A DNA stretch of 63,988 bases, filler included, from Candidatus Woesearchaeota archaeon (GTDB lineage: Archaea > Nanobdellota > Nanobdellia > Woesearchaeales > CAZJJJ01): assembly GCA_046538795.1 (NCBI GenBank). It is 6 parts of 6 records of this genome, joined end to end, with 100 filler letters (N's around TTAATTAATTAA, not from the genome) between each part and the next. Parts side by side here need not be neighbours in the genome. Positions count along the whole stretch, not along the records: positions 7,576 to 36,206 come from JBKHIF010000011.1; 5 more parts are not named here. The stretch is one strand, 5' to 3'. The first letter of the stretch is position 1; each line of letters starts with the position of its first letter. Made by a program: the position numbers. Positions 18,001-24,000 of the stretch are shown in pieces.

Positions 18001-21000
18001 CAGAATATCTTTTTTATTCACACTCAAAACTTATAGAAAGAATGAATTCTAAAACAGGTTACAAACATTCTACATCAAGAAAGATAACTCCTTTTTGCGC
18101 AATAGATATAAACCTTAATCTCGACAAGCCTTTCAATAATGAAAATCTGGAAATCGAATTCAATATATGGTGCGAAAAAGATTCATCATTGAATGTTTTA
18201 TATCATAATGTTATAGATTCATACAAGTATATTGCAAGAGATGATTTACCTACTGTTCAAGAAAACATAAGAAATATAGATCAAATAATAGATGCTTTTT
18301 CTCTGGATGAACTTAGAAGACACCCTTATGATCCTCATGAATAACTCAAACAGACGGCAAAATACCCCGCAAAAACGAAAAGAAATTTTTTAAATTTCTG
18401 CGTACACTGAAACCTTGTTTCAATCGTGTTTCATGCAAAATTTTCAATAAAAAAGAAAAAAGAAAAAAATCATAATAATTCGTTCTTTAATTCATCTGCA
18501 AGATCTGTATTTTCCCACGTGAAATCAGGATCATCTCTTCCGAAATGTCCGTATGCAGCTGTCTTTCTATATATGGGTCTCTTCAATTTAAGGACATCTA
18601 TGATATCATGGGGCTTTATAGGGAAATGCTTTCTTATAGCAGATGCTATTTTTTCTTCAGGAACCTTGTTTGTTCCGAAAGTACTTATATTTATTGAAAC
18701 TGGTTCTGAAACTCCGATAGCATATGCAAGCTGAACTTCACATTTGTCTGCAAGTCCTGCTGCCACTATATTTTTTGCAATATATCTTGCAGCATATGCA
18801 GCACTCCTGTCAACTTTGGATGGATCTTTCCCTGAAAACGCTCCGCCACCATGCTTTCCAAGACCTCCATATGTATCAACTATTATCTTTCTTCCTGTAA
18901 GACCTGCGTCTGCATAAGGACCGCCCCTTATGAATTCTCCTGTAGGATTTACATGATATGTAGTATTTTCATCTATCCACTCGCTGCACACAGGCTCAAT
19001 TACTTTTTTTATGATATCTTCTTTAATAGTTTCATAATTGACTCCTTCATCATGCTGGGTACTTATAACAATAGTATCTGCCCTAAGCGGTTTTCCATCG
19101 TCATCATATTCAATAGACACCTGGGATTTTCCGTCAGGCCTAAGATAGGTTATCTCATTATTTTTTCGTGCTTCAGCAAGCCTTTTAGTAAGCTTGTGGG
19201 CCAAAAGAATTGGAAGAGGCATAAGCTCTTTTGTCTCATTTGAAGCATAACCAAACATCATACCCTGGTCTCCTGCTCCCTGTTCCTTGTGAAGGCCTTC
19301 TCCTTCTGTAACACCTTGTGATATATCAGGAGACTGTTCTGTAACCTGGACCCAGACACTGCATGTTTCCCATTCTATGCCATGTTCTGATTTGGTATAT
19401 CCTATCTCTTTTATGGTTTCTCTCACTACTGTCGGAATATCAACATATCCTTTGGTGGTCATCTCACCAAATATCATCACTCCGCCATTTTTAGCTCCGG
19501 TCTCTATAGCAACCCTTGAATCAGGATCCTGCTTCAATGCCTCATCAAGTATAGCATCAGAAATTTTATCGCACATCTTGTCAGGATGACCTTCAGTTAC
19601 GCTTTCAGAAGTCAAAATTATCTTTTCTGTCATTAATACCAACCTCACTTATATAATATATCAAGAAATCCCTGATTGTTATTTAAATATGTTGTTGAAA
19701 CAATTATTCATATTGGAATAAAATTCTTTGCAGAATAATGTTTTCAAGAATGTTTTTAAAGATAGATGTACACTGCTTAAAAAAATGAAAACACACAAAT
19801 TTACCAAAGAGGAAGAAAAATCCAGGCTAGATGAAGCATTAGGCGACGCAACAAACATCATTTCCCAATATAGACGTAAATTTAATAAAATATCTCCTTG
19901 TTATTTTGGATGGAAAAATTATTCAGATGAAGGTCTTGGAATAATCACTCCTATCGAAAGATGCATTAGAATTCTTGAATCATACCAGAAAGAGAAATTT
20001 GTCCACGGTCTCTATGAAGATATATCAAAAATATACAAAGAAGTTTTTGTAACTGATCCAAGGCCTAAAGTTCCTGTTACATTAAAAGATCTATGATTTA
20101 TGTAATCCTGTTTTATTTAGAATTCAGGAAGAACTACATCTCTATATATCCTATCCATGCAGTTCTGAAGCTTGTTTATCCTTTCTTGTTTTCTTGTCGC
20201 TCTTAAAATCTGCCTCATGAAATCTACGCACTGCCTGATAAGCCTTATTACATCGCCTTCACGAAGATTTGTCATTTCCATTATCTCAAGAAAATCAGAT
20301 CCGTTTGCCCAGGAATATATCATAGGTATCATTTTTCTCAGATATCGCTTGTCAATCATCTGAGCGACATACATATTTTCAGAGACTGCATCAATTATGT
20401 TTATGAAAGCACGCTTATATTGTGGATCTTTTCTCTTGTAAAACTGATCATTTCGCCTTGCTTCATAGACAATTTCGGCAAGAAGACATATTATCTCAGA
20501 TTCTGAAAGAATATCGACAACACCTGAATCAAATATCTCTGTTATGAGAAGTTCATGTTGATATATGTATCTTGCAAACTCTCCTTTCTCAGTTATTTTT
20601 CCCGACTGATCAATATAGTCCATGCGTTTAAGACGCTTTACAGCATTCTTGAATGATGACATTATCCTTATATCTCGTCTTTGTTTTTTTCTAAGATAAT
20701 AATCAAAACTGCTTTTAAGGATAACTTCAATCGTTTCACTGTCATAGTTATTTACAAGATTAAGAACTGTATTATAAGAAAGCTTAAACTGTGATCTTAT
20801 AGGTTCAACATCCCTTGACATGAGATTGACCATTTTCTGGACATCATTATAATTCTTATCTATGAGAGCCATTGCCCTTCCTTCCTTATCTATACCCCGT
20901 CTTCCAGCGCGTCCTGCCATCTGGAAATATTCTTTTGATGAGAGATACCTGAAATTATACCCATCGTATTTTTCAAGAGAAGAAAAAGCAACTGTTTTTG

Positions 21001-24000
21001 CCGGCATGTTTATGCCAACTGCAAATGTTTCTGTGGCATAAAGAACTTTTATCAAGCCTTCATTGAAAAGCTCTTCTACAACCTCTTTCATTGATGGAAG
21101 AAGACCTGCATGATGGAAAGCTATGCCATTAGGAAGAACCTGCCTTAATGTCCTTACAGTTTCAAGAGAAGCATACTGAGAATCAAGCTTTTCCCTGAAT
21201 TTTTCAATAATCATTTTTTTCTGATCAGGAGTCGTGAAATCAAGTCTTGCTTTTCTCACCAATTCAACTGCCTTTTCTTCACAGGATTTTCTTGAGAATA
21301 CAAAAAATATACAAGGAAGAAAATTATTTGATCTAAGCTCTTTCACAAGATCAATATGCGTTGTCATCGGAAAATTATCAGCTCTCTTGTTATTTTTTCC
21401 TTTTTTGCTTCTATTTCCGAAAAAAGAATAATAATCATTATATTGGTTTATTTCTATAAGTTCTTTCACTTTTTCCAAAGGCACGATTCCGTTCATGGAA
21501 TCATAGAAAAAATGCTTGAGAGGAACAGCTCTCTTGTCATATTTTACGACATTTACCTCATGATCTTTTATGCTCATTATCCAGTCTGCAAACTCTTTGG
21601 CATTAGGAATCGTAGCGCTAAGACACAGAAATCTTATGTGTTCAGGTGAAAATATTATCGATTCTTCCCAAACAGTTCCGCGCTCAAAATCATTTATGAA
21701 ATGAATCTCATCGAATATTACATATGATATGTCATTTATCATCTGATCCTGGGTAAGAAGCATGTTCCGGTATATTTCTGTAGTCATTATAAGAACCTGG
21801 GCTTTCTTGTCATTTATCACAATATCTCCTGTGATCAATCCCACCTTATCTCCATATTCTTTCCTGAACTCCCTGAATTTTTGGTTGCTTAATGCCTTTA
21901 TAGGTGCAGTATAGACTATCTTGCTTCCTTTTTTTATGTATTTGTCTATAACATAATCTGCAATCAATGTCTTTCCTGTTCCTGTGGCAGCAGATACAAC
22001 TACTGAATTACCCTTGTCAAGATATTTTGCAGCATTTACCTGAAAATCATCAAGAATAAATTGTTTGTATCTCATCTGAGATTAAAGAAAACATCTGCAT
22101 TTAAAATAGTTTCTGATAGAATTTGATAAATATGTAAAAATGACTGTGCAAACTTGTCATTTCTGTGCGACCACAGGCACGTTGCTTGCAACTACCTTGT
22201 TTGAATAGCTTTGAATGGATAACGAAAAAATAAAAAGAAGAAGCATTATGAATGCGCCCAGCAAAAAGACATATTTTACGCCAAAAATATCTGAAATAAA
22301 TCCTCCAATCAGGGGGCCCATGCCTTCAGCAGTCATCTTAATTGTTGATATAACTCCTGAAATTCGTGATATTTTTTTCCTGGGTATTATTGTTGTCATT
22401 GCGCCTTCTATAGACGGGCGTATTATGGAAAATGAAAGAGATATGAAAAATGCAAGTATAAAAAGTACTGTGATACTTTTTGTGAAAAACACAAGCAGAA
22501 AAAATGATATGGAATATGTTGAACCTATAAGTATCATGCTTCTTTTTGAGTTTTTGTCTGCTATTCGCGAAAAGAATGATTCAAAAACTCTTGGAAGATT
22601 GCTTGCTGCAACAATAAGCCCGATGAAAATATAATTGCTTCCCATTTCATATACAAAAAGAGGAAGAAGAAGAGTGACTATACCTGCCGCCATCACCAGA
22701 AGAAATGTTATAGCAAGCAATTTCACAAGCTCTTTATCTTTCTTTACTTCACCATAACCAGACAATAGTGATCCTTTTCTGAAAACAGCTTTTATGCCTC
22801 GAAAAAAATAGGGTCTTTTTTTAAGTTCAGGAAGAAACAATATTGCAAGAATCAGTGCAAGCAAGGCAAATGCTGTCACAGAAAGATACATCATGTTTCC
22901 GATCATGCTCATAAGAAAGCCTCCTGCTACACATCCTAAAACTATTCCAAGTCCAAATGAGCTGTCAAAAAAACCGATAGATTCAGAAGTCTTGTTTTTT
23001 GAAGAATGTTCTCTCATGAAACTTTCCGCAGTAGTCCATACAGATGACATGAGAACTCCATGGTACATCCTGAAAAAAAGGACTGATAAAAATCCGCTAA
23101 GTATCAAAAACCATGGACCCATGAACATGTAAAAGAAAAATATGGCAACCAGAGTCCATTTTTTCGAGACTTTTTCCATGAATGCTCCCAAAGGAATGCA
23201 CCATAATGTGGATGTCACATAAAGGAGAAAAGTGATTATGCCAAGAGAGCTATAAGAACCAAGGATTTCTTTTATATAAATTGACTGGAAAGGTATGACG
23301 ATTCCCCAACCAAACATATAAACCAGAAAAATAAGAGATATCTTTTTTATGGCCTTTGGAAGCTTTGAGATATTTTTTGGAAATTTTCTTATTCCAAGAT
23401 GGAAATGCCTGTGAGCATGAGGATTGTGTGACATTACTTATTTTTTTGAAAAAATAATATTTAAATGTTTTTGAAAAAAGACAAAACATATTCATAAAAA
23501 ATGGATTAAAAAAATAAAGAAATAAAGAAAATCACTGCTCAAGCCTATTAGAAATTTAAAAAATTTCTATCCCTAAAACTGACAGTTTTAGATATCCCCA
23601 CACTGAAGTGTGGGGTATTAAGGCTTTCGCAGCTGACGTGATTTTCTAATTTCAAAATTCGCCTTCAAAGGCGAAGGTATTGCTCCAAAGGAGTACCCTT
23701 TCAGGGCAAACCCAAAATGTAGAAATAAAAAAATAAAAAAGAGATTTTATTCTTCTGAATCGCCATCTGATTCATCAACATCAAGGCTTCCCTGATTCTC
23801 CTCCTTGATCATCTTTACAATCTCTCTTACGATCTCATTTGCCTGCTTCATGTGTTCTCTTGCTCTCGCCATATATTGATTGGCTTCTTTTGCTAAGTCA
23901 TCTGTTTCTCCAGATGTCTTTGCTTCCATCCACTTTTTACCGGCAAGATCATAGTTCTCTTTTGCAAGGCTTATCATCTCGCTGAATTCAGAGAGTTTCT

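Follow-up and report, generated by a model that had tools for sequence, protein, structure and literature searches.

Known relatives of the helicase studied here include the eukaryotic Mtr4 (Dob1/SKIV2L2/MTREX) and Ski2 (SKIV2L) proteins and the single-gene DSHCT helicases of bacteria, HelY included. In Mtr4 and Ski2, the DSHCT domain serves as the ratchet and closes the RNA channel, while the arch and the N-terminal regions tether the enzyme to Rrp6-Rrp47, Mpp6 or Ski3/Ski8/Ski7. The HelY of Mycobacterium smegmatis, in work attributed to Uson et al. (2015), is said to be an RNA-dependent 3'-5' helicase, and it reportedly unwinds RNA:DNA hybrids. Passages of one study describe the Streptomyces HelY as enriched on ribosomes under tetracycline (PMC7157823). 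In archaea, passages of a 2024 survey report ASH-Ski2 (COG1202) from Euryarchaea and Asgard only, and state that the Mtr4/Ski2 group (COG4581) was absent from its 294 archaeal genomes (PMC10946056).

The window, i.e. the whole stretch of DNA that was analysed, is 63,988 nucleotides long; its positions 7576-36206 correspond to positions 1-28631 of the helicase-bearing contig (C50). This contig is archaeal, since it also carries the genes of ribosomal proteins S19e and L31e. The helicase ORF starts with ATG and contains no internal stop. Its features are listed below, each with the evidence used.

20117..22075, minus strand: whole gene, stop codon included, encoding an arch-less DExH/DSHCT helicase of 652 aa (ORF list, translation, Pfam, AlphaFold2, Foldseek)
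21476..22075, minus strand: RecA1 domain, about residues 1-200, boundary approximate (Pfam DEAD, orthologue conservation)
21374..21475, minus strand: linker between the two RecA domains, about residues 201-234, containing a Lys/Asn-rich loop (pLDDT, non-conserved orthologue columns)
20786..21373, minus strand: RecA2 domain, about residues 235-430, boundary approximate (Pfam Helicase_C, model strands, conservation)
20606..20785, minus strand: winged-helix region, about residues 431-490, boundary approximate (model helices, MTR4 alignment)
20675..20686, minus strand: arch site, residues 464-467, no insertion (residue-by-residue alignment to 6c90)
20132..20602, minus strand: DSHCT (NUC185) helical-bundle domain, residues 492-648 (PF08148, model, MTR4 alignment)

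The Pfam domains DEAD (residues 11-161, 90.7 bits), Helicase_C (residues 316-394, 42.1 bits) and DSHCT (PF08148, residues 492-648, model positions 2-170 of 172, 103.9 bits for a cut-off of 22.7) were all detected. The score above the gathering threshold for PF08148 places the protein in the DSHCT/COG4581 family; its conserved motifs, and the four-domain ring of the model (RecA1, RecA2, winged helix and ratchet), place it among the Ski2-like DExH helicases of superfamily 2. RecA1 contains LDxFQ (8-12), motif I AATGTGKT (29-36), motif Ia TAPIKALSNQK (56-66), motif II DEIH (122-125) and motif III SAT (153-155). RecA2 carries motif V TETFAVGINMPA (348-359), a beta-hairpin (368-377, with strands 368-370 and 375-377 in the AlphaFold2 model) and motif VI QMAGRAGRRG (385-394). 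The RecA1 motif residues do not vary among 35 orthologues, and most of them stay the same in 20 distant relatives as well; motif VI and the hairpin residues are likewise invariant in the 35 orthologues (K369, D371, G372, Q385 and G388-G394 within RecA2). The Lys/Asn-rich linker loop is probably disordered, as residues 220-231 have a pLDDT below 50 in the model and occupy columns that vary among orthologues. The winged-helix region forms helices at 434-484 and aligns with the MTR4 winged helix on both sides of the arch site; the DSHCT domain is helical in the model and aligns with MTR4 chain residues 771-967.

We compared the protein with known structures by sequence and by fold. The best PDB match (phmmer) is 6c90_A, human MTR4 with its arch deleted by engineering, aligned in a single stretch (query 5-649 to chain 70-728, E 1e-125), so that the end-to-end match announced by the genome-wide survey's note was recovered. 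Full-length MTR4 aligns as two separate segments (query 5-460 and 464-649). Ski2 follows at E 1e-112 to 1e-118 and archaeal Hel308 at E 1e-38 to 1e-47. The AlphaFold2 model (pLDDT 85.4, pTM 0.73) again has 6c90_A as its best Foldseek match (E 4.5e-53, TM 0.80), and the top folds include the yeast Ski2-exosome and Ski2-3-8 structures. Hel308 structures share the four-domain ring of Ski2-like helicases, as does ASH-Ski2, and span TM 0.66-0.69 (best E 3.8e-28, TM 0.69). Superposed on the arch-less or core-only entries of MTR4, Ski2 and Hel308, the model aligns over 676-697 columns. The identity to named eukaryotic MTR4 proteins is 42-43% over 68-75% of the query, close to the 41-42% first noted. 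Orthologues measure 631-704 aa and share 51-74% identity; as had been observed, those that are named all belong to Woesearchaeota, Nanoarchaeota or Nanobdellota, and IMG labels them 'superfamily II RNA helicase'.

The DExH core, the winged helix and the DSHCT ratchet follow one another in the archaeal protein as they do in Mtr4, but the protein has neither the stalk (PF21408) nor the KOW beta-barrel (PF13234) of the Mtr4 arch; no Pfam match to these models or to Ski2_N (PF17911) was found in it. Residues 464-467 pair with the Gly-Ser linker put in place of the arch in 6c90. Between residues 452 and 478, the arch-site insert amounts to 0 aa in the query and to -3 to +5 aa in 25 out of 25 rows of the DPANN clade, whereas 21 eukaryote-type rows have 240-339 aa there. 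The helicase core begins at residue 5, which leaves an N-terminal extension of 4 residues vs. a median of 254 in eukaryote-type rows. Ski2 likewise shares the family and the core with the archaeal helicase, but differs by its Ski2_N and its arch. The lack of an arch is not peculiar to the present archaeon: 89 of 238 family rows are arch-less, Omnitrophota and Planctomycetota included, and the insert is shorter than 15 aa in 25 of 66 named bacterial rows.

The distribution of the helicase was examined in 201 genomes of the order. The gene was found in 101 of them (81 of the 155 high-quality genomes), a share similar to the 395 out of 822 Woesearchaeales counted earlier, and in single copy every time. 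It is therefore a single-copy accessory gene, retained in about half of the order. In comparison, exosome RNase PH genes are present in 194 of the 201 genomes, i.e. in 100 of 101 helicase-positive and 94 of 100 helicase-negative ones; their co-occurrence with the helicase gives no signal, and the exosome does not depend on the helicase. No conserved neighbour emerged either, as no family among 205 neighbour ORFs recurs in more than 4 of 28 loci, and exosome genes never adjoin the helicase gene in these loci.

On balance, we lean towards a helicase that stands alone, is catalytically intact and lacks the arch, a member of the prokaryotic branch of the Mtr4/Ski2/HelY (DSHCT, COG4581) family. It was probably acquired from bacteria and would act as a general RNA remodeller rather than as an adaptor-guided exosome subunit. 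By homology, the two RecA domains, the winged helix and the DSHCT helical bundle would form a ring through which ATP hydrolysis would draw single-stranded RNA in the 3'-to-5' direction, and the RecA2 beta-hairpin would part duplexes at the ring entrance. The cellular role would most likely be to unwind or remodel RNA in general, be it in decay, in processing or in surveillance linked to the ribosome. We infer the polarity and this role, and RNA over DNA as the substrate from distant relatives only. With no arch, N-terminal extension or conserved gene partner, a general RNA enzyme appears the most likely. Following its probable uptake by a DPANN ancestor, the gene would have been kept as an accessory. 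This small archaeon carries a pared-down but complete relative of the helicases that feed RNA to the eukaryotic exosome.

The boldest claim of the genome-wide survey's note was that of a natural, minimal Mtr4-type helicase feeding the archaeal exosome. Its first half, an arch-less DSHCT helicase in an exosome-bearing archaeon, holds, given the intact ORF, its Pfam domains and the Rrp4, Rrp41 and Rrp42 genes on a separate contig (C6) of the same genome. The second half finds no support in the 28 loci or in the counts across the order. A dedicated cofactor would dock on the S1/KH cap (Rrp4/Csl4) and thread unwound RNA, 3' end first, to the Rrp41 sites. In favour of this reading, the three exosome genes share the classic superoperon with those of Pop5, proteasome alpha and SBDS, and nearly all helicase-positive genomes of the order possess RNase PH genes. 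Furthermore, this 97.6%-complete genome gave zero matches to an RNB nuclease and no above-threshold match to an RNase D-type enzyme (best 19.5 bits, sub-threshold), Rrp6/Rrp47 being the eukaryotic partners of the Mtr4 N-terminal region. The exosome is thus the sole recognisable 3'-5' exoribonuclease found there, and the obvious candidate should the helicase pass RNA to a nuclease. Two of the best structural matches, 6d6q and 8qcf, are complexes in which the Mtr4/Ski2 core is also seated on the exosome. A link with the exosome is possible. However, the exosome evidently works without the helicase in the 94 helicase-negative genomes, the gene stands apart from exosome genes at all 28 loci, the N-terminal extension, arch and Ski2_N that serve as tethers in Mtr4/Ski2 are missing, and the closest relatives are found in bacteria, which themselves have no exosome. 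A dedicated cofactor is consequently rather unlikely.

The origin of the helicase was investigated with three trees rooted on Hel308: FastTree on 241 rows, IQ-TREE LG+G4 on 100 rows and IQ-TREE PMSF on 60 rows. The DPANN clade is monophyletic (support 100, 99 and 99, respectively) and nested in an otherwise bacterial clade (100, 100 and 97) made up of Bacillota/Myxococcota, Wallbacteria/Muiribacteriota/Ozemobacteraceae and Poribacteria/Planctomycetota/Omnitrophota/Fibrobacterota. Eukaryotes form a separate clade (support 100), and the query lies outside it, and hence outside Mtr4 and Ski2, in all three trees. This helicase is a member of the prokaryotic branch of the DSHCT family, not a eukaryotic Mtr4 or Ski2; such a placement with mostly bacterial proteins, rather than as sister of Mtr4, is what the earlier reading had itself named as refuting it. 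By score, the nearest relatives outside DPANN are bacterial (480-560 bits, 42-46% identity), ahead of eukaryote-type proteins (about 395-424 bits). They belong to Bacillota, Wallbacteria, Muiribacteriota, Poribacteria, Omnitrophota, Planctomycetota and Fibrobacterota; those of the last three phyla are as arch-less as the archaeal helicase, whereas the nearest bacterial groups mostly have a helical arch-site insert of 108-125 aa. Strict actinobacterial HelY proteins (L065, L084 and L089) form a separate, more basal clade with inserts of 108-187 aa, and the archaeal protein shares neither this position nor the insert. Moreover, HelY hosts are bacteria with PNPase, while the present host is an archaeon with an exosome. 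We infer that the transfer ran from bacteria, and an ancestor of Woesearchaeota-type DPANN archaea probably gained the helicase long ago. The donor cannot be named, and the transfer may even have run the other way, because the DPANN clade is sister to the Bacillota group in the PMSF tree (support 87) but part of a polytomy with LG+G4.

Vertical descent from an ancient archaeal gene shared with Hodarchaeales (Asgard) and the eukaryotic Mtr4/Ski2 line, with a later loss of the arch and bacteria as recipients, seems very unlikely. The DPANN clade does run deep, with members in many families of the order. The bacterial-plus-DPANN clade also unites with the eukaryotes and the Hodarchaeales group, though weakly (87 with FastTree, unresolved with LG+G4, 81 with PMSF), to the exclusion of actinobacterial, chloroflexal and cyanobacterial HelY-like proteins. 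Forcing DPANN and eukaryotes together was not rejected by the AU test under LG+G4 with 100 rows (delta lnL 31.9, p-AU 0.22). Under PMSF, a site-heterogeneous model, the same constraint cost 52.4 lnL and was rejected (p-AU 0.011), with site frequencies taken from an unconstrained guide tree that may favour the free tree. However, DPANN proteins are nested inside bacterial groups, not sister to them, whichever tree is considered, and the archaeal rows nearest the base of the larger group are those of Hodarchaeales. The archaeal spread also looks narrow, with 400 of 452 carriers in one phylum according to the earlier count. These Hodarchaeales sequences also qualify the statement that archaea lack the Mtr4/Ski2 group: the 2024 survey indeed found none (PMC10946056, in the passages cited above), but since Hodarchaeales also encode DSHCT helicases, the absence is in a wider sense a sampling artefact.

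Hel308 was rejected as an identity for the protein, which scores 178-200 bits against NCBIfam Hel308 models with cut-offs of 887-1216 (NF040935, 191.8 bits for 1200; PRK02362, 200.3 bits for 887); Hel308 also has no DSHCT domain. The Hel308 of this genome is a separate gene, and none of the five matches to a Hel308 model in the genome is an ASH-Ski2-like protein. A helicase of DNA or RNA:DNA hybrids, serving in fork repair or R-loop removal and backing up or overlapping with Hel308, is highly improbable: DNA is a possible substrate of Ski2-like cores, Hel308 and Pol theta match the fold significantly, M. smegmatis HelY reportedly opens hybrids and Hel308 is in two separate pieces here and across the order, but Mtr4 and Ski2 are far closer than Hel308 in both sequence and fold, and a DNA-repair gene is never a conserved neighbour in the 28 loci. 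The split Hel308 occurs in helicase-positive (G156, G084 and G043) and helicase-negative genomes (G025, G016 and G034) alike, a pattern with no sign of compensation.

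The helicase is encoded by a single reading frame on the minus strand, and its 652-aa product carries the following Pfam domains:

20117-22075 (-), helicase ORF, ATG start, 652 codons, uninterrupted
helicase residues 11-161, DEAD
helicase residues 316-394, Helicase_C
helicase residues 492-648, DSHCT, nearly full-length (103.9 bits vs. a cut-off of 22.7)

The Pfam search returned no match in the helicase to the arch (PF13234, PF21408) or to Ski2_N, and the Hel308 equivalogs of NCBIfam gave 178-200 bits, against cut-offs of 887-1216. The top PDB sequence match was 6c90_A, the engineered arch-deleted human MTR4 (E 1e-125). 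It aligns in a single stretch over query residues 5-649, the Gly-Ser linker of the construct lying opposite residues 465-466, whereas the alignment with full-length MTR4 is broken in two stretches, one on each side of the arch. In the same search, Ski2 was found at 1e-112 to 1e-118 and archaeal Hel308 at 1e-38 to 1e-47. An AlphaFold2 model built from 35 orthologues (pLDDT 85.4, pTM 0.73) was then compared by Foldseek, and 6c90_A was again the closest (E 4.5e-53, TM 0.80), with Hel308 far behind (3.8e-28, TM 0.69). Motifs I (AATGTGKT), II (DEIH), III (SAT) and VI (QMAGRAGRRG), as well as the RecA2 beta-hairpin, are present in the helicase and invariant among orthologues. The core begins 4 residues after the protein start; the N-terminal and arch elements, which tether Mtr4 and Ski2 to the exosome and to adaptors, are therefore absent. 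The genome-wide survey's note had described an arch-less DExH/DSHCT helicase in an archaeon that has an exosome, and this description was borne out by the ORF, the Pfam domains, the PDB match, the fold and the presence of Rrp4, Rrp41 and Rrp42. The engineered arch-less MTR4 has a natural counterpart in the protein of the DPANN clade (the query and its Woesearchaeota/Nanoarchaeota-type orthologues). The orthologues already bear the database labels "DEAD/DEAH box helicase" or "superfamily II RNA helicase".

The gene lies on contig C50 (window 7576-36206) of a 1.34-Mb genome in 97 contigs that is 97.6% complete. A bacterial contaminant contig was ruled out, since the ribosomal protein genes S19e and L31e are carried alongside, the base composition is even with an unremarkable GC content, and orthologues are found on long Woesearchaeota contigs. 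More than 120 orthologues (631-704 aa, 51-74% identity) were collected, belonging to Woesearchaeota, Nanoarchaeota or Nanobdellota wherever the source gives a name. A scan for sigma-70 promoters and terminators gave 23 sites vs. 17.3 expected, with a bacterial model that is not meaningful for an archaeon. In the window, the neighbours of the helicase gene are an MFS transporter, a SAM synthetase and a 122-aa ORF of no known kind. Downstream of the helicase gene, the SAM synthetase (18470-19648, minus strand) belongs to the bacterial/eukaryal MetK type (PF00438, PF02772, PF02773) rather than to the archaeal one, and is perhaps a further gene of bacterial type in this genome. Two other minus-strand genes encode a 598-aa protein (23747-25543) that combines a hydrophobic segment at the N-terminus and a Kazal-type protease-inhibitor domain with a long, charged C-terminal part rich in helices, and a 336-aa membrane protein (16699-17709) with no Pfam match, whose C-terminal half is rich in Pro, Asn, Ser and Gln and contains three tandem SSKDSSPF-like repeats.

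We investigated whether the helicase is linked to the exosome. To our knowledge, no helicase cofactor of the archaeal exosome has been described, and none was found in the literature searched. On contig C6 of the same genome, Pop5/Rpp14, proteasome alpha, SBDS, Rrp4, Rrp41 and Rrp42 are grouped in one superoperon, a label that reportedly goes back to Koonin et al. in 2001. PF10447 gave no Csl4 match in this genome, which does not amount to absence of the gene, given that the model matched just 1 of 14 control genomes (Methanosarcina acetivorans), although archaeal controls were recovered with other models. No RNB-type nuclease was found in the genome, the RNase D-type gave a sub-threshold match only (19.5 bits), and two beta-CASP nucleases are present. 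The exosome is thus the sole 3'-5' exoribonuclease recognisable in the genome, and this is the single point favouring an exosome link, by elimination. Among 201 genomes of the same order that are at least 70% complete, the DSHCT helicase was found in 101 (81 of the 155 high-quality genomes), always in single copy and mostly as ORFs of 621-760 aa. RNase PH domains were found in 194 of the 201, usually two each. These tallies take in genomes flagged as unpublished (G110 for DSHCT; G110, G119, G130 and G180 for RNase PH). RNase PH is present in 100 of the 101 helicase-positive genomes and in 94 of the 100 helicase-negative ones. The exosome is therefore not dependent on the helicase, which half of the relatives can do without, and since nearly every genome of the order has an exosome, the co-occurrence of the two says nothing on cooperation. 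In addition, we clustered by blastp the 205 neighbour ORFs (four genes on each side) of 28 DPANN loci (the window, 7 public and 20 from the order). No conserved neighbour family occurred at more than 4 of the 28 loci, the largest being found at 4, and an operon partner of the helicase was accordingly ruled out. A complex prediction pairing the helicase alignment with that of Rrp4 (30 rows) scored 0.00 in two runs and returned no verdict. The sequencing runs listed for the helicase gene are all of DNA, from microbial-mat metagenomes, and none is of RNA.

By homology, the helicase would be an ATP-driven 3'-5' translocase, in which single-stranded RNA would be threaded through a ring of RecA1, RecA2, WH and DSHCT and duplexes would be split on the RecA2 hairpin. 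The biochemistry of Mycobacterium smegmatis HelY was reportedly described by Uson et al. in 2015, and a yeast Mtr4 without its arch was reportedly examined for activity by Jackson et al. in 2010. Streptomyces HelY is a WblC-regulon protein that is ribosome-enriched under tetracycline, and its deletion causes a twofold tetracycline sensitivity (PMC7157823). A review counts HelY among mycobacterial RNA-degradation proteins (PMC7509114). Taking the analysis as a whole, we lean towards a general stand-alone RNA helicase that would probably serve decay, processing or ribosome-linked surveillance. A dedicated exosome cofactor appears unlikely; the nuclease inventory speaks for it, and the exosome is kept in helicase-negative genomes. 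The specific form of such a partnership, in which a minimal adaptor-free Mtr4 would dock on the Rrp4/Csl4 cap and thread structured RNA to the Rrp41 sites, is somewhat less probable still. If true, the protein would be the helicase long sought as a partner for an archaeal exosome, and helicase-exosome coupling would occur outside eukaryotes as well, a bacterial-type helicase having been combined in DPANN with a nuclease of archaeal origin. A DNA or R-loop helicase is very improbable; the DNA-helicase-like possibility has to be set beside a best match to MTR4 in both sequence and fold.

We searched 1.84 billion cluster representatives exhaustively; 22,921 relatives passed E <= 0.001. The DPANN clusters rank first, followed by proteins of 750-810 aa with 42-46% identity (480-560 bits), the named ones being bacterial (Wallbacteria, Muiribacteriota, Bacillota); eukaryote-type proteins rank next, at about 395-424 bits. 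Among 80 loci from species-representative genomes, 6 are labelled Woesearchaeota and 2 Thermoplasmata/Thermoplasmatota, the others being bacterial (Poribacteria, Omnitrophota, Planctomycetota, Fibrobacterota, Bacillota, Melainabacteria/Cyanobacteria, Chloroflexota, Actinomycetota and others). The proteins of the two Thermoplasmata-labelled loci (L011 and L015) are 50-56% identical to the query, and L011 is nested in the DPANN clade, its neighbour being a Woesearchaeota-type representative, an indication that the bins are mislabelled or mixed. As a measure of the arch-site insert, the stretch bounded by query residues 452 and 478 was taken in each of 238 family rows; the insert is shorter than 15 aa in 89 of them. 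These include 25 of the 66 named bacterial rows (Omnitrophota, Planctomycetota, Fibrobacterota, deltaproteobacteria, Hakubella) and 11 unnamed representatives put in the DPANN clade by the tree; in all 25 DPANN-clade rows, the insert is -3 to +5 aa. The arch-less DSHCT helicase is thus a common prokaryotic form, not peculiar to this archaeon. Longer inserts were distributed as follows:

Length of the arch-site insert by group
Bacillota, Wallbacteria, Muiribacteriota, Poribacteria, Melainabacteria: about 108-125 aa
Actinomycetota: 108-187 aa
Chloroflexota: about 257-268 aa
eukaryote-type (21 rows): 240-339 aa

In the model of a Muiribacteriota protein (pLDDT 89.8), the 121-aa insert forms four long helices, a stalk without beta-barrel. 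Inserts of 108-125 aa are found at the arch site of the nearest bacterial relatives (735-810 aa; P0264 and alignment A4); in the model, the stalk has no KOW beta-barrel, and a few of these proteins match the Pfam MTR4-like stalk model weakly. Three nearly invariant cysteines close to the helix ends of the insert (C472, C541 and C547 of P0264) possibly form a metal site.

The origin of the gene was investigated with three trees, each rooted on DPANN Hel308. The first (FastTree, 241 rows) included 147 of 150 representatives (3 under 580 aa were left out), 21 further named or orthologous proteins, 3 Hel308 and 70 of the 80 genome loci, leaving out nine fragments and one 598-aa ORF. The other two were short IQ-TREE searches under LG+G4 (100 rows, 719 columns) and under LG+C20+F+G4 via PMSF (60 rows, 768 columns). 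In all three, the DPANN clade is monophyletic (support 100, 99 and 99) and nested in an otherwise bacterial clade (100, 100 and 97). The surrounding groups are Bacillota/Myxococcota, Wallbacteria/Muiribacteriota/Ozemobacteraceae and Poribacteria/Planctomycetota/Omnitrophota/Fibrobacterota; the actinobacterial, chloroflexal and cyanobacterial HelY-like proteins are more basal. The DPANN clade is sister to the Bacillota group under PMSF (support 87), and LG+G4 gives a polytomy. Eukaryotic Mtr4 and Ski2 form a separate clade in every tree (support 100). Constraining DPANN with eukaryotes costs 31.9 lnL under LG+G4 on 100 rows and is not rejected (p-AU 0.22). Under PMSF on 60 rows, the cost is 52.4 lnL (p-AU 0.011, p-KH 0.0125; two-tree test by iqtree2 with a stored site-frequency file), and the test may lean towards the free tree, its site frequencies having been taken from an unconstrained guide tree. 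On balance, a DPANN clade sister to eukaryotic Mtr4 is disfavoured, though not firmly excluded. An ancient archaeal gene, vertically inherited, is hardly probable: in every tree, the clade lies within bacteria. The gene looks like an old bacterial import, and an old transfer, probably from a bacterium to DPANN, is the simplest account.

Four further DSHCT helicases (P0364, P0338, P0335 and P0308), two of them named Candidatus Hodarchaeales (Asgard), are placed between the eukaryotic Mtr4/Ski2 proteins and the clade of bacteria plus DPANN. They have eukaryote-sized arch-site inserts (233-247 aa) and no N-terminal extension, and Pfam detected no arch in the three that were scanned. For Mtr4/Ski2, these are perhaps the archaeal relatives that matter more. 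"Mtr4" in Hodarchaeales is mentioned in passing in a preprint (10.1101/2024.07.04.601786), and no description of DSHCT helicases in DPANN was found in the literature searched. According to a 2024 survey of archaeal Ski2-like helicases, COG4581 (Mtr4/Ski2-type) occurs in none of 294 genomes (219 complete archaeal and 75 Asgard; PMC10946056). The earlier claim, drawn from that survey, that archaea are without the Mtr4/Ski2 group is correct as to the count; however, the zero reflects sampling, because an intact arch-less DSHCT helicase is present in roughly one genome in two of a large DPANN order, and a version whose insert has the size of an arch occurs in Hodarchaeales. The helicase belongs to a known family, of which it represents a new and uncharacterised architectural variant, in a lineage where it was not expected; the system as such is not of a new kind. 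Compact and soluble-looking, the protein could serve as a test case for what a bare Mtr4-type core does without adaptors, and could also reveal whether such a core can cooperate with an archaeal exosome. This value is tempered by the likely old bacterial import, the dispensability in half of the relatives and the hypothetical nature of the exosome link.

Finally, Hel308 is shared in this order between two separate genes, one encoding the RecA1 piece (about 215-250 aa) and the other the remainder (485-566 aa):

own genome: contig C24, 4598-6070 (L004), and contig C76, 3394-4032 (L005)
genome G025: contig C1, 420695-422179 and 754131-754751
genome G084: contig C1, 381855-383345 and 211160-211792

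G025 and G084 each consist of one contig, on which 170-330 kb separate the two pieces. Of 33 genomes of the order that gave a match (E <= 1e-60, own genome included), 23 show both pieces and none a full-length ORF, whereas a genome of another order of the same class has a normal 718-aa Hel308. Hel308 therefore looks like a conserved split gene in the order; split genes of this kind occur in Nanoarchaeum.
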